DNA from: Escherichia coli | GTDB lineage: Bacteria; Pseudomonadota; Gammaproteobacteria; Enterobacterales; Enterobacteriaceae | Assembly (NCBI RefSeq): GCF_046105845.1 | Contig: NZ_CP151004.1 | Reading direction: 5' to 3' (one strand) | Length of the DNA: 64,000 bases | Part shown: in pieces, positions 2,734-25,144 of the stretch | Layout: every line of letters starts with the position of its first letter | Numbering within the stretch: position 1 is the first letter of the stretch | Notes under the pieces: model-generated | The model's input: the letters and a program-made list of their open reading frames with translations, nothing else | Database searches by the model: none | What the model was told of the DNA's origin: nothing | Translations under genes and position numbers: made by a program

Positions 2734-2835
2734 ATGAAAGAGAATAAAGTACAGCAAATCAGTCATAAACTGATTAATATCGTTGTTTTTATCGCAATTG
2801 TAGAATACGCCTATTTATTTCTCCATTTCTATTAA
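2734..2835 (+). CDS. ykgR: small hydrophobic protein YkgR (33 aa)
   Basis: ATG at 2734 to TAA at 2833-2835 gives MKENKVQQISHKLINIVVFIAIVEYAYLFLHFY, below the ORF-track length cutoff. Matches my recollection of K-12 YkgR and sits next to ykgM as in K-12. Confidence 0.6.
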   Translation: MKENKVQQISHKLINIVVFIAIVEYAYLFLHFY

Positions 2836-3450: not shown

Positions 3451-3590
3451 TGAAAGTCCTTAACTCTCTGCGTACCGCAAAAGAACGCCATCCAGACTGT
3501 CAGATTGTGAAGCGAAAAGGACGGCTATATGTGATTTGTAAATCTAATCCACGTTTTAAGGCCGTTCAGGGTCGTAAGAAAAAACGTTGA
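3450..3590 (+). CDS. ykgO: 50S ribosomal protein L36 type B paralog
   Basis: 46-aa [49 protein letters not shown] whose ATG overlaps the ykgM stop (GTGATG); not in the ORF track. Confidence 0.85.
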
Positions 3591-3996
3591 TTCAAAATTC
3601 GACGGATTAATGATATTTGTCTGATTAATAATCAGACCTGATTAATGTTGGTGTATTTATTACACCAGCATTAATTTTCTTGGGGATGTATCTTCCTGTT
3701 CATTTAAGGTCAACTGCCTGACGTTTCTCTCCGAATATTCCATTATATTAATGTTGACTTGTTAACCAGGTGCGCCCTGTATGCTGGCATCAACTCTCTT
3801 TTAGACTGAACACGCCACTCAGTTTCCTCCCTTTGCGACGCAGCCTGCATTTACACTCAAACGGTTAAGATGATAAATGTGGTAAATCTGTTGGTACTGA
3901 CATAAAAACGTTTACGTCACAGGAACGGCCTGATCCACCGGTAACCCCATCGCCGACGTTCGAGTGCCAGTTAGAGTAACGCGCACAGATGACTGA

Positions 3997-4604: not shown

Positions 4605-5216
<612 letters not shown>

Positions 5217-5290
5217 ACTCCAGGCAAGTTAGTTTTAAAAAATGACTCACAGGGACATCACGTCCTCAATTCAACTCGGGAAGAAAAGCA

Positions 5291-5878
5291 ATGAAAAAAA
5301 AGGTTCTGGCAATAGCTCTGGTAACGGTGTTTACCGGTACAGGTGTGGCGCAGGCTGCTGACGTAACAGCTCAGGCTGTAGCGACCTGGTCAGCAACAGC
5401 CAAAAAAGACACCACCAGTAAGCTGGTTGTGACGCCACTCGGTAGCCTGGCGTTCCAGTATGCCGAAGGCATTAAAGGTTTTAACTCACAGAAAGGTCTA
5501 TTTGACGTAGCTATCGAGGGTGACTCAACGGCTACCGCCTTTAAACTGACCTCACGTCTTATCACCAACACCTTAACCCAGTTGGATACCTCAGGTTCCA
5601 CACTGAATGTGGGCGTGGATTATAACGGCGCGGCAGTCGAAAAAACTGGCGATACCGTGATGATCGATACCGCCAACGGCGTACTGGGCGGCAACCTTAG
5701 CCCACTGGCTAACGGTTACAATGCCAGCAATCGTACCACCGCACAGGATGGTTTCACTTTCTCCATCATCAGCGGCACCACCAATGGTACCACCGCAGTA
5801 ACCGATTACAGCACTCTACCGGAAGGCATCTGGAGCGGCGACGTTAGCGTACAGTTCGACGCTACCTGGACCAGTTAA
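5291..5878 (+). CDS. ecpA: E. coli common pilus major pilin subunit
   Basis: 195 aa with signal peptide [22 protein letters not shown] and a Thr/Gly-rich pilin-like mature region; position after ecpR. Confidence 0.9.
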
Positions 5879-5933
5879 TCTCTCTGATGTACCAGCAGGG
5901 GTCCCCCCTGCTTTATTCCTGGACGGAATTGTT

Positions 5934-6602
5934 ATGAAAAAGCACCTTCTGCCTCTCACTCTGCTGTTTTCCGGAATATCTCCGGCCCAGGCGCTGGATG
6001 TCGGCGATATATCATCGTTTATGAACAGTGACAGCAGCACGCTGAGCAAAACGATCAAAAACAGTACCGACAGTGGTCGCCTCATCAATATCCGTCTCGA
6101 ACGGCTCTCTTCACCGCTTGACGACGGGCAGGTTATCGCAATGGACAAGCCGGATGAGTTGCTACTCACTCCCGCCAGCTTGCTGCTACCCGCCCAAGCC
6201 AGCGAAGTGATCCGCTTCTTCTATAAGGGACCCGCAGATGAAAAAGAGCGCTACTACCGCATTGTCTGGTTTGATCAGGCCCTCAGTGATGCGCAGCGCG
6301 ATAATGCCAACCGAAGCGCTGTAGCCACTGCTTCCGCCCGCATCGGCACCATTCTGGTCGTCGCCCCTCGCCAGGCGAACTACCACTTTCAGTACGCCAA
6401 CGGCTCCCTGACAAATACAGGAAATGCGACGCTGCGGATCCTCGCCTACGGCCCCTGCCTGAAAGCCGTCAATGGTAAGGAGTGTAAAGAGAATTACTAC
6501 CTGATGCCGGGCAAGTCGCGTCGTTTTACCCGCGTGGACACTGCGGATAACAAAGGACGGGTTGCACTTTGGCAGGGTGATAAGTTCATTCCCGTGAAAT
6601 AG
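5934..6602 (+). CDS. ecpB: ECP periplasmic chaperone
   Basis: 222 aa, signal peptide; shares the ...[19 protein letters not shown]... block with EcpE at 10755..11465; operon position. Confidence 0.88.
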
Positions 6603-6627
6603 ATAGCTGTGCAGATGGATAACGACA

Positions 6628-9153
6628 ATGCCTTTACGACGGTTCTCCCCAGGACTGAAAGCCCAGTTTGCCTTCGGCATGGTCTTTTTGTTCGTTCAGC
6701 CCGATGCCAGCGCTGCTGACATAAGTGCGCAGCAAATAGGTGGGGTGATTATTCCGCAGGCCTTCAGTCAGGCGCTTCAGGACGGCATGAGCGTCCCGCT
6801 CTATATTCATCTCGCCGGTAGCCAGGGTCGCCAGGACGATCAGCGAATCGGCAGCGCTTTTATCTGGCTGGATGATGGACAGCTACGCATCCGGAAAATA
6901 CAGCTTGAAGAGAGTGAAGATAACGCCAGTGTCAGCGAACAAACTCGACAACAGCTGATGGCTCTGGCGAACGCCCCGTTCAATGAGGCCCTTACCATCA
7001 CACTGACTGACAACGCGCAGCTGGATCTCAGCTTGCGCCAACTGCTGCTGCAGCTGGTGGTCAAGCGCGAAGCGCTTGGCACCGTACTACGCTCACGTAG
7101 CGAAGACATCGGGCAGTCCAGTGTTAACACCCTCAGCAGTAATCTGAGCTATAACTTCGGCATCTATAACAACCAGTTGCGTAACGGCGGGAGCAACACC
7201 TCCAGCTATCTGTCGCTGAATAACGTTACTGCGCTGCGCGAACATCACGTGGTGCTCGACGGCTCACTGTACGGGATTGGTAGCGGTCAACAGGACAGTG
7301 AATTATATAAAGCGATGTATGAACGCGATTTTGCCGGTCACCGATTTGCCGGTGGAATGCTCGACACCTGGAACTTGCAGTCCTTAGGGCCGATGACCGC
7401 CATTTCAGCAGGGAAGATTTACGGCCTTTCCTGGGGAAACCAGGCCAGCTCCACCATCTTCGACAGCAGCCAGTCGGCCACGCCAGTGATCGCCTTTTTA
7501 CCGGCGGCGGGCGAAGTACATCTCACCCGTGATGGCAGGCTACTAAGCGTTCAGAACTTCACCATGGGCAATCATGAAGTGGATACCCGGGGTCTACCGT
7601 ACGGTATTTACGATGTGGAAGTTGAGGTCATCGTTAACGGTCGCGTGATCAGCAAACGCACTCAACGGGTCAATAAGCTGTTTAGCCGGGGGCGCGGCGT
7701 CGGTGCACCACTGGCGTGGCAGATATGGGGCGGTAGCTTTCATATGGATCGCTGGTCGGAAAACGGGAAAAAGACGCGACCAGCCAAAGAGAGTTGGCTG
7801 GCAGGTGCCTCGACCTCCGGCTCACTGAGTACGCTTAGCTGGGCGGCAACGGGATATGGATACGATAATCAGGCCGTGGGTGAAACCCGTCTGACGCTGC
7901 CGCTTGGGGGGGCGATCAACGTTAACCTGCAAAATATGCTGGCCAGTGACAGCTCATGGAGCAGCATCGGCAGCATCAGCGCCACTCTACCGGGAGGCTT
8001 TAGTTCGCTGTGGGTTAATCAGGAAAAAACCCGCATTGGCAATCAATTGCGACGTAGCGATGCCGACAACCGTGCTATCGGCGGCACACTCAACCTGAAC
8101 TCACTGTGGTCGAAGCTGGGTACGTTCAGCATCAGCTACAATGATGACCGCCGCTACAACAGCCATTATTACACGGCAGATTACTATCAAAGTGTCTACA
8201 GCGGTACCTTTGGTTCGCTTGGCCTGCGGGCCGGTATTCAGCGCTATAACAACGGCGACAGCAGCGCCAATACAGGGAAATATATCGCTCTCGATCTCTC
8301 GCTACCACTGGGCAACTGGTTTAGCGCAGGGATGACCCATCAAAACGGCTACACCATGGCAAACCTGTCAGCACGCAAACAGTTTGATGAAGGAACCATT
8401 CGCACTGTTGGTGCCAATCTGTCACGAGCCATCTCCGGCGATACCGGTGATGACAAAACCCTCAGCGGTGGGGCGTATGCACAGTTCGACGCTCGTTACG
8501 CCAGCGGAACGCTGAACGTCAATAGCGCGGCGGACGGCTACATCAATACCAACTTGACCGCCAATGGCAGCGTCGGCTGGCAGGGTAAAAACATCGCTGC
8601 CAGCGGGCGGACTGATGGCAACGCTGGGGTGATATTCAACACCGGGCTGGAGGACGACGGTCAGATCAGCGCCAAAATCAACGGGCGGATTTTCCCGCTT
8701 AACGGCAAGCGTAACTATCTCCCGCTCTCTCCCTATGGAAGATATGAGGTGGAGTTACAGAACAGCAAAAACTCACTCGACAGCTACGATATCGTCAGCG
8801 GCCGCAAAAGCCATCTGACTCTCTATCCAGGCAATGTCGCTGTCATTGAGCCAGAGGTGAAGCAGATGGTTACCGTCTCCGGTCGTATCCGTGCGGAAGA
8901 CGGCACACTGCTGGCTAACGCACGGATTAACAACCATATCGACCGAACCCGAACCGATGAAAACGGCGAGTTTGTCATGGATGTGGACAAGAAATACCCC
9001 ACTATCGATTTTCGCTACAGTGGCAATAAAACCTGCGAAGTGGCACTGGAACTCAACCAGGCGCGCGGTGCCGTCTGGGTCGGTGATGTGGTCTGCAGCG
9101 GCCTCTCATCGTGGGCGGCGGTGACGCAGACAGGAGAAGAGAATGAGAGTTAA
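6628..9153 (+). CDS. ecpC: ECP outer-membrane usher
   Basis: 841-aa ORF with signal peptide, usher-like size and composition, operon position. Confidence 0.9.
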
Positions 9154-10786
9154 CCTACTGATAGCGATGATAATCTTTGCGCTAATCTGGCCTGCAACCG
9201 CGCTCAGAGCGGCAGTGAGCAAAACAACCTGGGCGGATGCTCCGGCACGCGAGTTTGTGTTTGTCGAAAACAACTCAGACGACAACTTTTTCGTCACGCC
9301 TGGCGGGGCGCTGGATCCGCGCCTGACCGGTGCCAACCGCTGGACCGGTTTAAAATACAATGGTTCAGGAACCATCTATCAGCAAAGTCTCGGCTACATT
9401 GATAACGGTTACAACACCGGCCTTTATACCAACTGGAAGTTTGATATGTGGCTGGAAAATTCACCAGTTTCATCTCCTTTAACTGGCTTGCGCTGCATCA
9501 ACTGGTACGCCGGGTGTAATATGACCACCAGTCTTATCCTGCCGCAAACCACCGACGCCAGTGGATTTTATGGCGCGACGGTGACCAGCGGCGGCGCGAA
9601 GTGGATGCACGGCATGTTGTCAGACGCGTTTTACCAGTATCTGCAACAAATGCCCGTCGGCAGCAGCTTTACAATGACCATCAATGCCTGCCAGACCTCT
9701 GTGAACTATGACGCCAGCAGCGGCGCACGCTGTAAGGATCAGGCCTCCGGCAACTGGTATGTTCGCAACGTCACCCATACGAAAGCAGCAAATCTACGGT
9801 TGATAAATACCCACTCGCTGGCGGAGGTGTTTATCAACAGCGACGGAGTACCGACTCTGGGCGAAGGGAACGCCGACTGCCGGACGCAAACCATCGGCAG
9901 CCGTTCAGGATTAAGTTGTAAGATGGTTAACTATACCCTGCAAACAAACGGACTCAGCAACACCTCAATCCATATCTTCCCGGCGATCGCCAACTCGTCG
10001 TTAGCCTCGGCCGTCGGGGCGTACGATATGCAGTTCAGTCTGAATGGCAGTTCATGGAAACCGGTGAGCAATACTGCCTATTACTACACCTTCAACGAGA
10101 TGAAGAGCGCAGACTCGATCTATGTTTTCTTCTCGAGCAACTTCTTTAAGCAGATGGTGAACCTCGGGATCAGCGATATCAACACCAAAGATCTATTCAA
10201 CTTTCGCTTTCAGAACACCACATCACCGGAGTCTGGCTGGTATGAATTTTCTACCTCCAACACGCTGATTATCAAACCCCGTGATTTCAGCATCAGTATT
10301 ATCTCCGATGAATATACTCAGACACCGTCGCGGGAGGGATATGTTGGCAGCGGCGAGTCGGCACTCGATTTCGGCTATATCGTAACCACCAGCGGTAAAA
10401 CAGCTGCCGACGAAGTGCTGATCAAGGTGACCGGACCCGCGCAGGTGATTGGCGGGCGCTCCTATTGTGTCTTCAGCTCCGATGATGGTAAGGCGAAAGT
10501 ACCGTTCCCGGCGACGCTTTCCTTTATTACCCGCAGCGGAGCTACAAAAACCTACGATGCCGGGTGCGATGATAGCTGGCGGGATATGACCGATGCGCTG
10601 TGGCTGACCACACCGTGGACTGATATCTCTGGCGAAGTGGGGCAGATGGATAAGACCACAGTCAAATTTTCGATTCCAATGGATAACGCCATTTCGCTGC
10701 GTACGGTAGATGATAACGGCTGGTTTGGCGAAGTCAGCGCTTCAGGAGAGATTCATGTTCAGGCGACGTGGCGTAACATTAACTAA
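9143..10786 (+). CDS. ecpD: ECP tip adhesin/polymerised subunit
   Basis: 547 aa, signal peptide, 11-bp overlap with the ecpC stop; operon position. Confidence 0.88.
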
Positions 10787-11465
10787 GGCCCTGCTGACAG
10801 TGGTCTGTATGCTGGCGGCACCTTTGACACAGGCGATTTCGGTCGGCAATCTGACTTTTTCACTGCCGTCCGAGACTGACTTTGTCAGCAAACGTGTAGT
10901 GAATAACAACAAAAGCGCACGGATATACCGTATTGCCATCAGTGCTATTGATAGCCCGGGCAGCAGTGAATTGCGCACCCGACTGGTGGATGGTGAACTG
11001 CTTTTCGCCCCCCGCCAGCTGGCGTTGCAGGCTGGTGAGAGCGAGTATTTTAAATTTTACTATCATGGTCCACGGGATAACCGCGAGCGCTACTACCGGG
11101 TCTCATTTCGCGAGGTCCCCACTCGCAACCAGACAAGACGCAGCCCAACCGGCGGCGAGGTCAGCACGGAGCCGGTGGTGGTGATGGATACCATTCTGGT
11201 AGTACGACCTCGTCAGGTTCAGTTTAAATGGTCCTTCGACCAGGTGACAGGAACGGTAAGTAACACTGGCAACACATGGTTTAAGCTACTGATTAAGCCA
11301 GGATGTGATTCGACCGAAGAGGAAGGCGATGCCTGGTATCTACGTCCGGGAGACGTGGTTCATCAGCCTGAGTTACGTCAGCCGGGGAATCATTATCTGG
11401 TCTATAACGACAAATTCATTAAGATTAGCGATTCCTGTCCGGCTAAGCCCCCTTCGGCGGACTAA
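10755..11465 (+). CDS. ecpE: ECP second periplasmic chaperone
   Basis: Start set at the internal Met ([14 protein letters not shown]...), giving 236 aa with a signal peptide; paralog of EcpB. The ORF track extends to 10710. Confidence 0.85.
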
Positions 11466-13376: not shown

Positions 13377-14066
13377 ATGAGCAACCAAGGCGAATACCCC
13401 GAAGATAATCGGGTTGGGAAGCACGAGCCGCACGATTTTAGTTTGACCCGTCGCGATCTGATTAAAGTCAGCGCCGCAACGGCGGCGACCGCCGTGGTTT
13501 ATCCTCATTCTACGCTTGCAGCAAGCGTTCCGGCAGCTACACCCGCGCCCGAGATAATGCCCCTGACACTTAAGGTGAACGGCAAAACCGAGCAGTTGGA
13601 CGTTGATACCCGAACCACGCTACTGGACGCTTTGCGTGAAAATCTGCATCTGATCGGTACCAAGAAAGGTTGCGATCACGGGCAGTGCGGAGCCTGTACC
13701 GTGCTGGTCAATGGTCGCAGGCTTAATGCCTGCCTGACGCTTGCAGTCATGCATCAGGGGGCCGAGATCACCACCATTGAAGGCCTGGGTTCACCAGAGA
13801 ATCTTCACCCCATGCAGGCGGCCTTTATCAAGCATGATGGCTTCCAGTGCGGCTACTGCACCTCCGGGCAAATTTGCTCATCAGTAGCGGTGCTAAAAGA
13901 GATTCAGGACGGCATTCCCAGTCACGTCACGGTCGATTTGGTTTCCCCTCCAGAAAGAACTGCCGATGAGATCCGTGAACGTATGAGCGGCAACATCTGT
14001 CGCTGTGGTGCATACGCTAACATCCTTGCCGCCATTGAAGATGCTGCGGGGGAGATAAAATCATGA
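13377..14066 (+). CDS. paoA: periplasmic aldehyde oxidoreductase, [2Fe-2S] subunit with Tat signal
   Basis: 229 aa; twin-arginine motif TRRDLIK; ferredoxin-type cysteine clusters ([24 protein letters not shown]). Confidence 0.9.
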
Positions 14067-15019
14067 AGGCGTTTACCTATGAACGAGTGAACACCCCGGC
14101 CGAGGCGGCACTTAGCGCTCAGCGCGTACCCGGCGCAAAATTTATCGCTGGCGGGACCAATCTGCTGGACCTGATGAAGCTGGAAATTGAAACGCCCACC
14201 CACCTTATCGATGTGAACGGCCTCGGGCTCGATAAGATTGAAGTGACCGACGCGGGTGGGCTGCGCATCGGCGCACTGGTACGGAACACCGACCTGGCGG
14301 CTCACGAGCGCGTGCGTCGTGATTACGCGGTACTCTCCCGCGCCCTGCTCGCTGGCGCGTCTGGTCAGTTACGTAATCAGGCAACCACCGCAGGTAATCT
14401 GCTCCAGCGCACGCGCTGCCCCTATTTTTACGACACCAATCAGCCCTGCAATAAGCGCCTGCCCGGGAGCGGCTGCGCGGCACTTGAAGGCTTTAGCCGT
14501 CAGCACGCGGTGGTAGGCGTAAGCGAAGCCTGCATTGCCACCCATCCGAGCGATATGGCGGTCGCAATGCGGTTGCTGGATGCGGTAGTGGAAACCATCA
14601 CGCCGGAGGGAAAGACTCGCAGTATCACACTGGCTGATTTTTATCACCCACCGGGGAAAACGCCGCACATTGAAACCGCCCTGCTTCCCGGTGAGCTTAT
14701 CGTTGCGGTGACGTTACCTCCGCCGCTCGGCGGAAAACATATCTACCGCAAGGTGCGCGATCGCGCCTCCTACGCCTTTGCTCTGGTGTCGGTCGCGGCG
14801 ATTATCCAGCCAGACGGCAGCGGGCGCGTCGCACTGGGCGGAGTAGCTCATAAGCCCTGGCGCATTGAGGCTGCGGATGCTCAGCTATCCCAGGGGGCGC
14901 AGGCCGTGTATGACGCGCTGTTCGCCAGCGCCCATCCCACCGCTGAAAACACCTTTAAACTCCTGTTGGCGAAGCGAACGCTTGCCTCCGTACTGGCTGA
15001 AGCGAGGGCACAGGCATGA
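14063..15019 (+). CDS. paoB: aldehyde oxidoreductase FAD-binding subunit
   Basis: 318 aa; start overlaps the paoA stop (ATGA coupling); CO-dehydrogenase flavoprotein-like. Confidence 0.9.
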
Positions 15020-17214
15020 AATTTGATAAACCCGCAGGGGAAAACCCGATCGATCAGCTGAAGGTTGTCGGTCGTCCCCATGACCGCATCGACGGACCGC
15101 TGAAAACTACTGGCACGGCACGCTACGCCTACGAATGGTATGAAGAAGCTCCCAACGCCGCCTATGGTTATATCGTCGGTTCCGCCATTGCCAAAGGATC
15201 CCTCACCGCCCTCGATACGGACGCCGCGCAAAAAGCGCCGGGCGTACTGGCTGTCATTACCGCCAGTAACGCCGGGGCACTCGGCAAAGGCGACAAAAAC
15301 ACCGCCAGGCTGTTAGGCGGCCCCACTATTGAGCACTATCATCAGGCCATTGCGCTGGTAGTGGCTGAGACCTTCGAACAGGCGCGAGCGGCGGCCTCGC
15401 TGGTGCAGGCGCACTATCGCCGTAATAAAGGAGCTTACTCCCTGGCGGACGAGAAACAGGCCGTCAGTCAGCCGCCGGAAGACACGCCCGATAAAAATGT
15501 TGGTGACTTTGACGGGGCTTTCACCTCCGCTGCGGTGAAGATTGATGCTACCTACACGACCCCGGACCAGAGCCATATGGCGATGGAGCCGCATGCCTCG
15601 ATGGCCGTCTGGGATGGAAATAAGCTTACTCTCTGGACCTCAAATCAGATGATTGACTGGTGCCGCACCGATCTGGCAAAAACGCTGAAAGTGCCCGTGG
15701 AGAATGTGCGTATTATCTCCCCGTATATCGGCGGAGGGTTTGGCGGCAAGCTGTTCCTGAGAAGCGATGCGCTGCTGGCGGCCCTCGCCGCCCGTGCGGT
15801 GAAACGTCCGGTTAAAGTGATGCTCCCCCGCCCCACTATTCCCAATAACACCACGCACCGCCCCGCCACCCTTCAGCACTTGCGTATCGGTACTGACCAG
15901 AGCGGGAAAATCACCGCTATCTCACATGAAAGCTGGTCCGGAAACCTGCCCGGCGGCACGCCGGAAACGGCGGTACAGCAAAGCGAATTACTCTACGCCG
16001 GAGTGAGTCGTCATACCGGCCTGCGGCTCGCCACGCTTGATTTGCCGGAAGGGAACGCCATGCGTGCGCCCGGCGAAGCCCCCGGTCTGATGGCGCTCGA
16101 AATCGCGATCGATGAACTGGCGGAAAAAGCGGGCATCGATCCCGTCGAGTTTCGCATCCTGAATGACACTCAGGTTGACCCCGCCGACCCGACGCGCCGC
16201 TTCTCTCGCCGTCAGCTTATCGAGTGCTTGCGCACCGGAGCGGATAAATTTGGCTGGAAGCAGCGCAACGCCACACCCGGACAGGTGCGCGACGGGGAGT
16301 GGCTAGTCGGCCACGGCGTCGCAGCGGGCTTTCGCAATAATCTGCTGGAAAAATCGGGTGCGCGGGTTCATCTCGAACAAAACGGCACCGTTACCGTGGA
16401 AACGGACATGACCGATATTGGCACTGGCAGCTACACCATTCTGGCCCAGACGGCAGCGGAAATGCTTGGCGTACCGCTGGAGCAGGTTGCGGTTCACCTC
16501 GGCGATTCCAGTTTCCCGGTTTCTGCGGGGTCTGGTGGACAATGGGGCGCGAATACCTCCACCTCCGGCGTTTACGCCGCCTGTGTGAAGCTTCGCGAAA
16601 TGATTGCCTCGGCAGTCGGGTTTGATCCTGAGCAGTCGCAGTTTGCCGACGGCAAGATTACCAACGGTACCCGAAGCGCCATGCTACATGAGGCCACCGC
16701 AGGCGGCAGACTGACAGCGGAAGAAAGCATTGAATTCGGAACACTGAGCAAGGAGTACCAGCAGTCGACCTTTGCCGGGCATTTTGTGGAGGTCGGCGTG
16801 CATAGCGCGACGGGAGAAGTTCGGGTCCGGCGTATGCTCGCTGTGTGTGCTGCAGGACGCATCCTGAATCCGAAAACTGCACGCAGCCAGGTCATTGGCG
16901 CAATGACTATGGGCATGGGCGCGGCACTGATGGAGGAGCTGGCGGTGGATAACCGTTTGGGCTACTTCGTTAATCACGATATGGCGGGGTATGAGGTTCC
17001 GGTCCATGCGGATATCCCAAAACAGGAGGTGATTTTCCTGGATGATACCGACCCCATATCCTCCCCGATGAAGGCCAAAGGTGTCGGTGAGCTGGGCCTG
17101 TGCGGCGTGAGCGCGGCTATCGCCAACGCGGTGTATAACGCCACCGGTATTCGGGTACGGGATTATCCCATCACTCTGGATAAGCTGCTCGATAAGCTGC
17201 CGGATGTGGTTTAA
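15016..17214 (+). CDS. paoC: aldehyde oxidoreductase molybdopterin-binding catalytic subunit
   Basis: 732 aa; xanthine-dehydrogenase-family large subunit; start overlaps the paoB stop. Confidence 0.9.
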
Positions 17215-17223
17215 GGAGGAACA

Positions 17224-18180
17224 ATGTCATACCCACTTTTTGACAAAGACGAGCACTGGCATAAGCCAGAGCAGGCGTTTCTCACCGATGACCACCAGGC
17301 CATTCTGCGCTTCGCCGTAGAGGCGCTAATGTCCGGTAAAGGAGCGGTGCTGGTGACGCTGGTGGAAATACGCGGCGGCGCGGCGCGCCCGCTCGGGGCG
17401 CAGATGGTGGTGCGCGAAGATGGCCGTTACTGCGGTTTTGTCTCTGGCGGCTGCGTGGAGGCCGCTGCCGCTTTTGAAGCGCTGGAGGTGATGGGCTCAG
17501 GCCGCGATCGCGAAGTTCGCTATGGCGAAGGTTCACCGTGGTTTGACATCGTTCTGCCCTGCGGCGGTGGGATCACGCTGACGCTCCATAAACTACGCTC
17601 GGCACAGCCTCTGCTCGCCGTGCTGAACCGCCTGGAACAGAGAAAACCGGCGGGTCTGCGCTACGATCCGCAAGCTCAATCGCTGGTGTGCCTGCCCACG
17701 CAAACCCGGACGGGCTGGAATCTCAATGGCTTTGAGGTGGGGTTCAGGCCATGCGTCAGGCTGATGATTTACGGACGTTCTCTTGAGGCGCAGGCAACCG
17801 CGAGTCTTGCAGCAGCCACAGGCTATGACAGCCATATCTTCGATCTTTTTCCGGCCTCAGCCAGCGCTCAGATCGATACCGATACGGCGGTCATTTTGCT
17901 GTGCCATGATCTCAACCGGGAGCTGCCAGTGTTGCAGGCCGCGCGAGAAGCAAAACCCTTTTATCTCGGCGCATTGGGCAGCTATCGAACCCACACGTTA
18001 CGTCTGCAAAAGCTCCACGAGCTGGGATGGTCCAGGGAGGAAACAACGCAAATCCGGGCACCCGTCGGGATATTCCCCAAAGCCCGGGATGCGCATACTC
18101 TGGCACTCTCCGTGCTGGCAGAAGTCGCCTCTGTACGTCTCCATCAGGAGGAGGATTCATGCCTGCCCCCGTCGTCCTGA
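17224..18180 (+). CDS. paoD: molybdenum cofactor insertion chaperone (XdhC family)
   Basis: 318 aa immediately after paoC; XdhC/CoxI-like. Confidence 0.85.
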   Translation: MSYPLFDKDEHWHKPEQAFLTDDHQAILRFAVEALMSGKGAVLVTLVEIRGGAARPLGAQMVVREDGRYCGFVSGGCVEAAAAFEALEVMGSGRDREVRYGEGSPWFDIVLPCGGGITLTLHKLRSAQPLLAVLNRLEQRKPAGLRYDPQAQSLVCLPTQTRTGWNLNGFEVGFRPCVRLMIYGRSLEAQATASLAAATGYDSHIFDLFPASASAQIDTDTAVILLCHDLNRELPVLQAAREAKPFYLGALGSYRTHTLRLQKLHELGWSREETTQIRAPVGIFPKARDAHTLALSVLAEVASVRLHQEEDSCLPPSS

Positions 18181-20951: not shown

Positions 20952-21836
20952 ATGGCGAAAAGGGAGAACTACAACGAGCTGTACCTGTTTATGCAGGTGG
21001 TGCGGGAAGGCAGCTTTACCGCAGCGGCTCAGCGGCTGGGTCTTGCTCAGTCAGGAGTCAGCCGTTCTGTTCGCGAGCTTGAAGAAAGGCTCGGCGTCCA
21101 GCTGCTAGTGCGCACCACGCGTAAACTGTCGCTGACACAAGCAGGCGAGCAGCTCTACCAGAAGACGGCATCTGGATTTGAAATGTTAGATCTTGGGCTT
21201 GCCACGCTGGCGCACTATCGAGAGACGCCCTCCGGCACGGTGCGTATCAATGCCAGCCAGCACGCGATTGATAAATGCCTGCTGCCAAAGCTGGCGGTAT
21301 TTAAACAGCGATATCCTGATATCCGGCTTGAACTGATAAATGAGAGCCGGTTCGTCGATATCATCGAGGAAAGATTCGATGCAGGTGTCCGCCTGGGGCC
21401 TGAAGTCGGCCAGGGTATGGTCGCGGTACGCATCACGCCCGATATGGAGATGGCAATTGTGGGGACTCCGGAACATTTTCGTCGCTATGGTTTTCCGCAA
21501 ACCCCGGCGGATTTAAAGGCGCATCCCTGTATCGCCTATCAGTTTGCCGACGGCAGCGTATACCAGTGGGAACTCAATCAGGATGATAAAAAAATCACTC
21601 ATCGCCCTGAAGGGCAATGGGCCTTATCCGACAGCTATATGGAAGCAGAAGCCGCCCGGCTGGGCCTCGGATTGGCCTATGTTCCTGTTGAACTGGTCGC
21701 GGATGATTTAGAACACGGTAAGCTTATCAGGGTGTTGCAGCGTTACAGCCTGCGAATGGAGGGATTGTTTCTCTATTACCCTCATCGCAACGTCTCCCCC
21801 GCCCTGCGGATGGTCATTGATACATTGAAAATCTGA
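20952..21836 (+). CDS. LysR-family transcriptional regulator
   Basis: 294 aa; N-terminal HTH (FTAAAQRLGLAQSGVSRSVRELEERLGVQLL) typical of LysR; divergent from the hydrolase/MFS pair. Confidence 0.85.
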   Translation: MAKRENYNELYLFMQVVREGSFTAAAQRLGLAQSGVSRSVRELEERLGVQLLVRTTRKLSLTQAGEQLYQKTASGFEMLDLGLATLAHYRETPSGTVRINASQHAIDKCLLPKLAVFKQRYPDIRLELINESRFVDIIEERFDAGVRLGPEVGQGMVAVRITPDMEMAIVGTPEHFRRYGFPQTPADLKAHPCIAYQFADGSVYQWELNQDDKKITHRPEGQWALSDSYMEAEAARLGLGLAYVPVELVADDLEHGKLIRVLQRYSLRMEGLFLYYPHRNVSPALRMVIDTLKI

Positions 21837-22058
21837 ACGTTAATAACGACCGACTCTTCACTGTGCAACATTGTGTCAGGTAGTCCCTCTGCGTTCAATT
21901 CCAGGGTCTGCTTTGAGCGAGAAAGAGGGGACTATCCAGCAATGGAGATCACCCAAAAGAAAAAACCACCTGGCTCCCTCGACAACCTTCATCCAGGCAT
22001 TTAGCCTCAATCAACATTTTTATATCTGTCAGGTTACTTCATGATGAAAACTGATCAT

Positions 22059-22305
22059 TATCGTTGTTTTTGTTGCAATAGTAGAATACGCGTATTTATT
22101 CCTCCATCTCTATTAATAACGGCAATAAACTGTTCACTTCACTGATATTTAAAATATGTATCCTTTTCAAGCTGTTCAGCGGCGTAAGAAAAAGTATTAA
22201 TTATGAATTCGACGATTTAACCATATCTGTCTGATTGGTAATCATCCGTGATTAATGTTGGTCTATTGATTACGCCAGCATTAACCGCTTAGGGATGTAT
22301 TCTTC
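22059..22305. repeat. degenerate second copy of the ykgR/ykgO flanks with ykgM and most of ykgO missing
   Basis: 22059..22153 aligns by eye with 2775..2873 (ykgR 3' half and downstream) and 22156..22305 with 3558..3705 (ykgO 3' end and downstream), with scattered substitutions; the ~680 bp carrying ykgM/ykgO is absent between the two blocks. Confidence 0.7.
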
Positions 22306-22607
22306 CTGTTGATATCCCCCCCTCGAAAAAGAGAGAAAATAAAACTGTGTCCAATATTACTCTACCACTCCAGACCGAAGCATCGGTGGGATTAGCAGGA
22401 CGACTGGTACAGAAGGATGGTATAGCGTCATTTGTCGGGCATTCCATTGCCATAATAATGACAATTTTGAATCAATAGACATGCTTCTTGATCATGTCTT
22501 AAAAATTAGACCATGAGCCTTACGAAGCATCATTTTTACTGACTGGTATTAACTTTGCTATCATATAAACTCTGTTCTTAAAAACGCGCCCAGAATTTAT
22601 ATGATTT

Positions 22608-22748
22608 TCATTGTTTTTCTGCCTGTAAAGAAATTTCTTTTTCAGTGCTGTCGATGGTTGAACCGACGGCAGTAATCGTTTTGGCGACGCTACTGAAGGA
22701 TATTAAAGACAGTGTAACCACAACAATTAAAGAATAGATAATATTCAT
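22608..22748 (-). CDS. small hydrophobic/secreted protein (46 aa)
   Basis: ATG at 22748 preceded by AGGAGA RBS; MNIIYSLIVVVTLSLISFSSVAKTITAVGSTIDSTEKEISLQAEKQ, an N-terminal hydrophobic helix then a polar tail. The ORF track gives a longer version from 22796. Confidence 0.4.
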   Translation of the reverse strand: MNIIYSLIVVVTLSLISFSSVAKTITAVGSTIDSTEKEISLQAEKQ

Positions 22749-22963
22749 GCTAATTCTCCTGACAATTGAGAGGATGAGTTTTATATACAAAGGCATTAAA
22801 TATGAGTCATGTTTACTCCCTGTGAAAATAATCTTACTGTAATTAAACCTTCATCTCCTTCGGAGTGAGCAATGCATAATATAATGCATCTTGCTATTCA
22901 AAACAGTGGATATAAATTTTCCTCGCGACCTATTTAATAAAACGTGAATATAAAAGTTAGTCT

Positions 22964-23515
22964 TCAGTTTGCAGATGCAGTAGGTCTGATGGTAATTTCG
23001 GTTGTATCAACTGTTTCGGGAGATTCAATAATATGCCTTACAGCACGGGCAATATCCGCGGGTTGAAGTGCAACAGAACGGTAGGCGTCCATTGACTTCA
23101 TGGTTTCCACATGGGTAATGGTTGAAGCCAGTTCACTTTCTACAACCCCAGGATTTACGCAGGTCACACGGATTTTCGAGCTTTCCTGCCGTAAGCCATC
23201 CGAAATAGCCCGTACTGCAAATTTTGATGCACAATAGACTGCGCCTGTGGGCACAACAGAAAGGACACCAATAGAACCAAGATTGATTATCTGACCGGAA
23301 CCCTGTGCTTCCATCACCGGAAGTACAGCGCCAATTCCCCAAAGTACGCCTTTGATATTCACGTCAATAGTGAGTTCCCATTCATCTTGTTTTCCTGCTG
23401 CAAGCGGTGAAAGCGGCATAACGCCCGCATTATTGATAAGAACATCAACTCGCCCCCAGCTATCCAGCGCTGCTTGCACGAAATCGGCCATGGACTGCCG
23501 GTCTGTGACATCCAA
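22964..23515 (-). pseudogene. short-chain dehydrogenase/reductase (SDR), N-terminally truncated
   Basis: 183-aa ORF has the SDR core (NNAG, catalytic Y...K in VYCASKFAV) but lacks the N-terminal TGxxxGxG NAD-binding segment; its 5' end abuts the integrase remnant. Confidence 0.7.
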
Positions 23516-23519
23516 CTTG

Positions 23520-23686
23520 CATTTTCAGAAATGGGAGGCTGGGAGTCTATCGAAATGGTTCGTCGATATGCTCACCTCGCGCCTAATCACCTTACCGAAC
23601 ACGCACGGCAAATAGACTCAGTCCTGAACCCATCGGTCCCAAATTTGTCCCAGTCAAAAAATAAGAAAGGTACTAATGATGTGTAA
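23520..23686 (+). pseudogene. tyrosine-recombinase (phage integrase) C-terminal remnant
   Basis: ...[28 protein letters not shown]... matches the conserved C-terminal tyrosine-recombinase block (catalytic Y in RYAHL) and ends 14 bp from the tRNA 3' end; no upstream integrase body. 5' boundary approximate. Confidence 0.6.
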
Positions 23687-23700
23687 CTTATTGATTTAAA

Positions 23701-23776
23701 TGGTGCCGATAATAGGAGTCGAACCTACGACCTTCGCATTACGAATGCGCTGCTCTACCAACTGAGCTATATCGGC
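23701..23776 (-). tRNA. thrW: tRNA-Thr (anticodon CGU)
   Basis: The reverse complement reads GCCGATATAGCTCAGTTGGTAGAGCAGCGCATTCGTAATGCGAAGGTCGTAGGTTCGACTCCTATTATCGGCACCA: cloverleaf, CGT anticodon, CCA end; next to proA as in K-12. Confidence 0.9.
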
Positions 23777-23890
23777 CCTGAAAGGACATGTTCACGAACG
23801 TGAATCACGGTGGACAAGGTTAAAACTAACCGGGCGATGCGTCAATGGCCTTGTGAATCAAATGGCTACTTTTGCATCACCCGGTTTTAT

Positions 23891-25144
23891 TTACGCACGA
23901 ATGGTGTAATCACCAATGCCGATCCACTTGTAAGTGGTCAGTGCTTCCAGCCCCATTGGGCCACGCGCGTGGAGTTTTTGTGTGCTTACCGCCACTTCCG
24001 CACCCAGACCAAACTGGCCGCCGTCGGTAAAACGCGTAGAGGCGTTAACGTAAACAGCGGACGAATCCACTTCGTTAACAAAACGCTGGGCGTTGCGCAT
24101 ATCGCGGGTCAGGATCGCATCGGAGTGTTGTGTGCCGTGTTCACGAATATGGGTGATGGCATCGTCAAGATCGCTGACGATTTTGACGTTCAAATCTAAT
24201 GACAGAAACTCATCGTCATACTCTTCCGCTTTCACAGCCACCACCTTCGCGGGGCCTGTCTGCAACTGCGCCAGCGCAGCTGCATCTGCGTGTAATGTCA
24301 CGCCGCTTTCCGCCATTTGTTTGCTTAATGCGGGCAGGAAGCTGTCGGCGATGTTTTTATTCACCAGCAACGTTTCAACCGTATTACATGTGCTCGGACG
24401 CTGGGTTTTCGCGTTGACGATTACTTTCAGGGCTTCAGCGATCTCTGCACTTTCATCAACATAAATATGGCATACGCCTATACCACCTGTGATCACCGGG
24501 ATCGTCGACTGTTCGCGGCACAGTTTATGCAGGCCAGCGCCACCACGCGGGATCAGCATGTCGATGTATTTATCCATACGCAGCATTTCACTGACCAGCA
24601 CACGGTCAGGATTATCAATCGCCTGCACGGCACCCGCCGGTAAGCCGCAGGATTTCAGGGCGTCCTGAATCACCGCCACCGTTGCAGCGTTAGTGCGACA
24701 CGTTTCTTTGCCGCCGCGCAGGATCACCGCGTTACCTGTTTTCAGGCACAGCGAAGCGACATCTACCGTCACGTTCGGGCGCGCTTCATAAATCACGCCA
24801 ATCACCCCCAGCGGCACGCGACGGCGCTCCAGACGCAGACCACTGTCCAGTACGCCGCCATCGATTACCTGCCCCACCGGATCGGCGAGATTACACACCT
24901 GACGCACATCGTCGGCGATGTCTTTCAGCCGTGCGGGCGTCAGTGCCAGACGGTCAAGCATCGCTTCGCTAAGGCCATTGGCACGCGCGTCAGCAACATC
25001 CTGGGCGTTAGCGTTGAGGATGATTTCGCTTTGTGCTTCCAGTTCATCGGCGATTTTTTCCAGCACACGATTTTTTTCGCGGCTGGAGAGTTGCGCTAAT
25101 TTATACGAGGCTTGCTTTGCGGCAATGCCCATTTGTTCCAGCAT
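23891..25144 (-). CDS. proA: gamma-glutamyl phosphate reductase
   Basis: 417 aa, aldehyde-dehydrogenase-like; conserved proBA operon. Confidence 0.9.

Follow-up and report, generated by a model that had tools for sequence, protein, structure and literature searches.

A 46-codon open reading frame near thrW of Escherichia coli as the probable remnant of an accessory gene for an exported DUF1471-family protein

What kind of element is the 46-codon open reading frame (ORF) that lies close to the transfer RNA (tRNA) gene thrW in a stretch of 64,000 nucleotides from Escherichia coli (contig NZ_CP151004.1 of assembly GCF_046105845.1, hereafter the window)? Read on the minus strand from an ATG at 22746-22748 (from 22748 downward) to a TGA at 22608-22610, it encodes a product of 46 residues, MNIIYSLIVVVTLSLISFSSVAKTITAVGSTIDSTEKEISLQAEKQ, which had been proposed, from the sequence of the stretch, to be a native small protein with the architecture of a small membrane toxin or an exported peptide. 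We conclude with high confidence that the segment 22520-22748 is instead a pseudogene of an accessory Escherichia gene for an exported protein of the DUF1471 family, and not a membrane toxin. The coordinates of all features are collected in Table 1.

The properties that make this ORF conspicuous were correctly recognized in the original prediction. Its start codon is preceded by AGGAGA at an ideal spacing of 6 nt on the minus strand, a Shine-Dalgarno (SD) sequence shared with the other E. coli alleles and replaced by AGGATA in those of the cryptic Escherichia clades. The N-terminus is hydrophobic and the tail polar, with mean Kyte-Doolittle values of +1.96 for residues 1-22 and -0.55 for residues 23-46. 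Moreover, the surrounding DNA between a ykgR-like repeat and an integrase scar is indeed AT-rich: the GC (guanine plus cytosine) content is 36% in the ORF and 37% in 21840-22960, versus 51% in the whole window. The idea that the 46 residues represent the native protein, on the other hand, does not hold, as the homologs extend to 76 codons and the copy in the window carries a nonsense codon and two frameshifts.

These lesions became apparent when the window copy was aligned to seven intact alleles, L001 and L002 of E. coli and five more; in total, seven intact and seven broken copies were sampled at the DNA level. A 76-codon gene is found at the same locus in other E. coli and in cryptic-clade Escherichia, measuring 231 nt in intact alleles versus 229 nt in the window. 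At codon 47, the glycine codon GGA has become the stop codon TGA. Further downstream, a run of three A's stands where intact alleles have AAAA (five E. coli-type alleles and one clade allele) or GAAA (two clade alleles), the length of this site being conserved throughout, and a run of five T's replaces T6 (five alleles), C plus T5 (L009), or G plus T5 (L014). Three-frame translation reveals that the lost C-terminal residues persist in two other frames as KSYK, ILGAF, and KNRVYMIAKLIPVSKNDAS, the last of which runs into the ancestral stop and ends at 22520. In view of these lesions and of the C-terminal residues that can still be read in the shifted frames, the 46-codon ORF is what remains of the 5' part of a longer gene. 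The presence of two additional frameshifts within 90 nt past the stop indicates relaxed constraint on the gene.

Conservation of the frame in related genomes had been set beforehand as the check on its coding nature, and the frame is conserved, running 30 codons past the stop of the window copy. The related proteins form 84 clusters, nearly all of which come from Escherichia or Shigella and most of which are full-length. Among ten intact proteins (78-97% identity), the mature domain is almost invariant, including residues 47-72 that are absent from the window product, and the signal peptide is more variable. The ratio of nonsynonymous to synonymous substitution rates (dN/dS, calculated according to Nei-Gojobori, NG86) between E. 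coli-type and cryptic-clade-type intact alleles amounts to 0.14-0.21 in the mature domain (dS 0.25-0.40) and to 0.17-0.34 for the whole gene, whereas shallow within-species pairs, which contain very few substitutions, give higher and noisier ratios. The intact alleles are under purifying selection. As for its distribution, the gene is clearly accessory: of 5426 complete E. coli genomes, 765 contain the 1-kb region and about 434 the gene segment itself, and a search of the ykgR-rcl region of strain K-12 did not reveal any remnant. A literature search on ykgR and thrW yielded nothing on the gene.

The Prokaryotic Genome Annotation Pipeline (PGAP) does annotate a full-length coding sequence at the syntenic position, albeit as a 92-residue "hypothetical protein" (L001:4321-4599, WP_024177850; L002:4318-4596, WP_024221765). 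Its start, equivalent to an ATG at 22796 in the window, adds an N-terminal extension of 16 codons and was rejected: in four divergent alleles, namely the cryptic-clade alleles and one E. coli allele, the extension contains in-frame stops, and the distant homologs begin at the position of the short start. For these reasons, and in view of the conserved SD core, the ATG proximal to the ribosome-binding site (RBS) is taken as the true start.

To which family does the intact protein belong? Judged by its sequence, it is a divergent and minimal member of DUF1471 (YdgH/BhsA/McbA/YhcN; PF07338). The protein itself stays below the thresholds of the curated models, as it scores 14.4 bits against PF07338 (E 0.041, cutoff 27) and 19.8 bits against the NCBIfam BhsA model (E 8.5e-4, threshold 90). 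Homology to accepted DUF1471 members is established via intermediate sequences. A profile of the mature domain retrieved 32 proteins at E<=1e-3 among 1.84 billion representatives, mostly 68-73 residues long and with the same layout of signal peptide and domain. When 28 of the relatives from the profile search were combined with two family members into an alignment of 30 sequences (A4), 25 of the 30 matched PF07338 (best E 3.2e-11) and 24 of the 30 matched NCBIfam BhsA, with fewer matches to YbiJ, YhcN, McbA, and RclB. In their source records, these relatives from Enterobacter, Klebsiella aerogenes, and Pectobacterium are named "DUF1471 / YdgH/BhsA/McbA-like domain-containing protein". Likewise, tblastn against plasmids returned genes of Klebsiella, Enterobacter, Citrobacter, and E. 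coli that PGAP names DUF1471, with 56-61% identity over 91-95% of the protein and E values down to 7e-21. The taxonomic range also corresponds to that of a small-protein family restricted to Enterobacterales: the close family is confined to Escherichia and Shigella, and the distant relatives occur in Enterobacter, Klebsiella, Pectobacterium, Atlantibacter, Pantoea, Leclercia, and Citrobacter. A BLASTP comparison with K-12 RclB gave no alignment.

Structure prediction points in the same direction. With the 30-sequence alignment as input, AlphaFold2 produced a model with a predicted local distance difference test (pLDDT) score of 84 overall and 91-97 in the core, consisting of a helix (residues 3-19), a strand (24-29), a second helix (32-45), and two further strands (48-57 and 61-69). 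An earlier AlphaFold run with a shallow alignment of ten Escherichia-only sequences, which gave one long helix at a pLDDT of 63, was discarded. The predicted mature domain thus comprises about 54 residues in a beta-alpha-beta-beta order, in which an antiparallel sheet packs on a helix as is typical of the family, and the predicted fold retrieves solved DUF1471 domains. In a Foldseek search of the PDB, no hit reached E<=0.001; the DUF1471 domain 4evu ranked fifth, with a probability of 0.97 and a template-modeling (TM) score of 0.58. Profile searches against PDB sequences found nothing with the close family, and only the marginal matches 2ma4 and 2noc ("putative periplasmic protein") at E of about 0.4 with the broad alignment.

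The first 22 codons encode a putative Sec-type signal peptide, MNIIYSLIVVVTLSLISFSSVA, with KT following the cut. On inspection, it shows a hydrophobic core of about 16 residues (3-18) and small residues at positions -3 and -1 (S-V-A), followed by a lysine, and we infer that cleavage occurs after S-V-A. The n-region of the Escherichia protein is devoid of lysine and arginine. In the AlphaFold2 model the helix of residues 3-19 precedes the folded domain, and the signal peptides of the relatives, which start with MK.. and end in A|Q or A|K, align with this N-terminus. Members of the DUF1471 family are periplasmic proteins whose signals are cleaved (PMC4092069), and a periplasmic location would be expected for the intact protein as well.

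The following course of events accounts for these observations. The intact gene encodes a 76-residue precursor, made up of a predicted 22-residue Sec signal peptide and a domain of about 54 residues. In the lineage of the window, a G-to-T change (GGA to TGA) converted Gly47 into a stop, and farther downstream two short homopolymer runs each lost one base pair. Besides the start codon and the RBS, the remnant retains the codons for the signal peptide, for strand 1, and for the helix, but not those for strands 2 and 3, which would complete the sheet. Indeed, the stop lies one residue past the helix, and the strands of residues 48-57 and 61-69 are missing from the window product, as are the majority of the invariant residues (G47, K48, S49, Y50, I52, L53, G54, F57, K58, R60, V61, Y62, I64, K66, and L67). 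With a TGA at codon 47 and two frameshifts, the window copy does not encode a complete functional DUF1471 domain, and according to the model the truncated fragment cannot form the sheet of the family. If translated and exported, it would yield a 24-residue periplasmic peptide without the family fold that would most likely be degraded, and loss of function may be presumed.

The exact allele of the window is absent from the 5426 complete RefSeq genomes of E. coli, where the best match has 97.9% identity over 141 nt. An exact protein look-up recovered the 46-residue product (P0085) on at least 24 other contigs, from draft genomes and metagenomes. Over about 350 nt, six of the carrier contigs, which come from different samples, match the window at 100% identity, all three lesions included; because identical copies occur in different samples, the broken allele is real rather than a sequencing error, and it is fixed in a lineage. 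The thrW locus that carries the allele comes in three structural forms (L003-L008): one with a truncated SDR oxidoreductase gene adjoining proA, as in the window, one in which the truncated SDR gene adjoins a phage primase (D5/Toprim) gene, and one with an intact SDR gene and a LysR gene. Inactivation of the gene must therefore have preceded the movement of islands at thrW or taken place independently of it; in other words, the pseudogene is older than the island turnover at this site or has recombined across it.

Other E. coli alleles are broken elsewhere: frameshifts in short A- or T-runs occur at five or more different positions, and an internal deletion and rearrangement junctions are seen as well. 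These numerous alleles, which broke independently of one another (proteins P0061, P0064, P0067, P0071-P0075, and P0078-P0082), mostly carry -1 frameshifts in A- or T-runs of 4-6 nt. In the P0061/P0064 allele, NFFT[DG]R replaces EISLQAE and the C-terminal half stays in frame, which looks like a compensated double frameshift. Intact forms were counted on more than 1000 contigs versus tens for the broken forms. This pattern of loss fits a dispensable accessory gene.

Which other explanations could be given for the ORF? It might never have been a gene at all, but a chance ORF in AT-rich non-coding DNA. ORFs of this length are not exceptional here: 2 ATG ORFs of at least 46 codons were observed per 1.1 kb versus 1.7 expected at local composition, and in a Pfam scan the 46-residue peptide alone matched no family, the only hit being a meaningless one to PsbT at E 0.4. 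Such an ORF preceded by an AGGAG or GGAGG SD at the right spacing is, however, rare, with an expectation of 0.02 per region (it arose in 2% of 5000 first-order Markov simulations), and a chance origin would leave unexplained the seven intact alleles read at the DNA level, the mostly full-length clusters, the dN/dS well below 1, the distant homologs in other genera, and the confident fold prediction. We regard a chance origin as refuted and as the least probable of all explanations. A type I toxin-antitoxin-like system, in which a small hydrophobic membrane toxin would be regulated through antisense RNA or through a neighboring antitoxin, is hardly more credible. Its appeal lies in the small size, the hydrophobic N-terminus, the strong RBS, and the AT-rich accessory DNA, and an antisense transcript could in principle start from two plus-strand sites that resemble sigma-70 promoters, one at 22535-22564 (with an extended -10 TG) and one at 22578-22605, both directed into the 3' end of the gene. 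These sites do not rise above chance, as the promoter scan gave 6 sites versus 3.5 +/- 2.3 in shuffled sequences, and no terminator was found. As for the antisense small RNA that had been suggested as something to look for, no known family turned up: in an Rfam scan of both strands of 21800-24000, only the thrW tRNA reached its gathering score, next to two sub-threshold chance matches outside the ORF. Antisense to the pseudogene there is a GTG-initiated ORF of 30 residues (22645-22737, plus strand), for which we found no support. The hydrophobic stretch of about 16 residues with its S-V-A|K site fits a cleavable signal peptide rather than a transmembrane toxin helix, homology and fold point to a periplasmic DUF1471 protein, and the small ORF is not the unit of conservation, given that the homologs are 68-76 residues long (the native protein has 76) and contain a soluble domain. 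Of the two roles originally envisaged, the export signal is thus retained as a prediction and the toxin is not. Hok, Ldr, Ibs, TisB, and the neighboring YkgR share with the ORF its shortness, a hydrophobic segment, and a position in accessory DNA; they have no sequence relation to it, and the type I toxins differ from the native 76-residue protein with its folded soluble domain and predicted cleavable signal peptide.

A somewhat less remote alternative is that the truncated ORF continues to be expressed and that its product, the signal peptide plus an amphipathic tail of 24 residues, has come to serve a separate function as a small peptide that is exported or associated with a membrane. Intact alleles have exactly the same RBS, ATG, and upstream region, and an allele that is found on so many contigs and in three thrW structures must have persisted for some time. 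Nonetheless, the frameshifts that follow the stop speak of relaxed constraint, two of the three strands are missing from what remains of the mature part, and the breaks at different places in other lineages suggest loss rather than a selected new product; the copies of the allele, all being identical, are uninformative on selection at codons 1-46. On balance, we deem such a peptide unlikely. Marginally less likely still is a bolder combination, according to which the intact protein would define an unrecognized minimal and partly plasmid-borne DUF1471 subfamily, present in E. coli as an accessory paralog repeatedly switched off at homopolymer runs, while the remnant in the window may still give rise to an exported peptide of 24 residues that retains some activity in the envelope or has gained a new one. 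A pseudogene of an exported DUF1471-family protein remains by far the best explanation.

How does the intact protein compare with its relatives? The known single-domain DUF1471 proteins comprise BhsA (YcfR), YhcN, YbiJ, McbA, YahO, and RclB from E. coli and SrfN from Salmonella. In common with them, it has a small precursor, an N-terminal signal peptide (predicted here), one compact alpha/beta domain, and a distribution limited to Enterobacterales. It differs in that it aligns only to positions 8-40 of the 55-position Pfam model, and, unlike SrfN and YahO, it lacks an extra short N-terminal strand and helix. Its gene, moreover, is accessory and has become a pseudogene in the window. DUF1471 proteins are periplasmic or associated with the outer membrane and have been linked to stress, biofilm formation, and the envelope: BhsA to copper permeability and multiple stresses, YhcN to peroxide and acid, McbA to biofilm, RclB to hypochlorous acid (HOCl) and hypothiocyanous acid (HOSCN), and YdgH to beta-lactam susceptibility, although a molecular mechanism has been defined for no DUF1471 protein (PMC4092069; PMC12096828). 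By analogy, the intact protein is most likely an exported accessory envelope-stress protein, with a stress-related role that would resemble those of its relatives.

Its closest counterparts are the short (69-73 residues) DUF1471 proteins of Enterobacter, Klebsiella, Pectobacterium, Leclercia, and Citrobacter, many of which are plasmid-borne. They share its length class and layout, and align end to end at 37-61% identity. The intact E. coli gene belongs to this short-DUF1471 subfamily. The chromosomal Escherichia version stands apart by its MN.. n-region without lysine and by a longer C-terminal tail (PVSKNDAS), as well as by its PGAP annotation as a "hypothetical protein" with the non-conserved N-terminal extension of 16 codons. 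Relatives at 56-61% identity occur on large plasmids of Klebsiella, Enterobacter, Citrobacter, Leclercia, and Pantoea (225 plasmid records, mostly non-mobilizable; H43-H55), and a 73-residue version (the P0104/P0134 cluster) is annotated as "MULTISPECIES [Enterobacterales]" in E. coli, Atlantibacter, and Klebsiella. Given this plasmid carriage and the multi-genus 73-residue version, the DUF1471 subfamily appears to move horizontally. A mere fold resemblance, at 10-14% identity, exists to RcsF (an outer-membrane lipoprotein sensor), UPF0145/YbjQ, and DUF74; unlike RcsF, the intact protein contains neither a lipobox nor cysteines, and it is not a member of these families.

In other genomes, the syntenic gene order reads MFS, alpha/beta hydrolase, LysR, ykgR fragment, the 76-codon gene, SDR oxidoreductase, thrW, proA, and proB. 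The ProA protein of the window matches E. coli ProA entries without a difference. At the intact loci L009, L012, and L013, LysR is followed divergently by SDR and the DUF1471 gene, which lie on the same strand with a gap of about 215 nt, and then by a convergent ykgR. This arrangement suggests that the DUF1471 gene has a promoter of its own in the gap. In the window, the SDR gene is likewise the upstream same-strand neighbor, but its 5' end is replaced by the integrase fragment, whereas other genomes have an intact SDR gene and a divergent LysR regulator between SDR and thrW. The integrase fragment and the SDR truncation are the scar of an island integration or excision. On the other side of the pseudogene, the ykgR repeat covers the 3' two-thirds of the intact ykgR at 2734-2832 (plus strand; 33 residues, 97% identical to K-12 YkgR), and an adjacent 150-nt segment (22164-22313) repeats 3554-3703 at 78.8%. 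The ykgR repeats look like traces left by an old rearrangement in which ykgR and the SDR/DUF1471 block came apart.

Farther away in the window, ORF sizes and order match K-12 matA(ecpR)-ecpABCDE at 4626-11465 (196, 195, 222, 841, 547, and 251 residues, the last being 236 in K-12) and paoABCD at 13377-18180 (229, 318, 732, and 318 residues). Both blocks, which were identified by ORF length and order only, have an orientation relative to thrW opposite to that in K-12, and there is no CP4-6 prophage between them and thrW.

Table 1. Location and basis of the pseudogene, its parts and lesions, and neighboring features in the window
Feature	Coordinates	Strand	Basis
Whole pseudogene, remnant of a 76-codon gene (signal peptide plus minimal DUF1471 domain)	22520..22748	minus	Alignment to intact alleles
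Residual 46-codon ORF (TGA included)	22608..22748	minus	ORF list and translation; exact product P0085 recorded on at least 24 contigs
Shine-Dalgarno AGGAGA	22755..22760	minus	6-nt spacer to ATG; read from the sequence
Putative Sec-type signal peptide, codons 1-22	22683..22748	minus	Cleavage site inferred
Lesion 1, nonsense TGA at codon 47	22608..22610	minus	Gly (GGA/GGG) in 7/7 intact alleles; changed base 22610
Lesion 2, 1-bp deletion in A-run	22596..22598	minus	AAA here versus four positions in intact alleles
Lesion 3, 1-bp deletion at T-run	22580..22584	minus	T5 here; one base more in intact alleles
Ancestral TAA stop of the 76-codon gene	22520..22522	minus	Alignment and three-frame translation
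ykgR 3' fragment and downstream DNA	22048..22164	plus	117-nt direct repeat of 2767-2883, 90.6% identity; PGAP "YkgR, incomplete" in L001 and L002
5'-truncated SDR oxidoreductase gene, residues 57-240 of 240	22967..23518	minus	tblastn, 97% to the intact L012 SDR; PGAP pseudogene in L001
Integrase C-terminal fragment abutting thrW	23474..23686	plus	ORF translation; PGAP "integrase, incomplete" in L001
tRNA-Thr (CGT), thrW	23701..23776	minus	ARAGORN; Rfam tRNA 71.8 bits

The importance of this finding is minor and mainly a matter of annotation, as we are dealing with an ordinary pseudogene of an accessory gene. For the lineage of the window, pseudogene is the appropriate annotation of the 46-codon ORF, rather than small protein or toxin. 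The "hypothetical protein" of the WP_024177850 and WP_024221765 type can be assigned to DUF1471, and its start should be moved 16 codons downstream. For the family, it means that the DUF1471 repertoire of E. coli strains can exceed the ten copies of K-12 by an accessory paralog, which has relatives on plasmids of Klebsiella, Enterobacter, and Pantoea.
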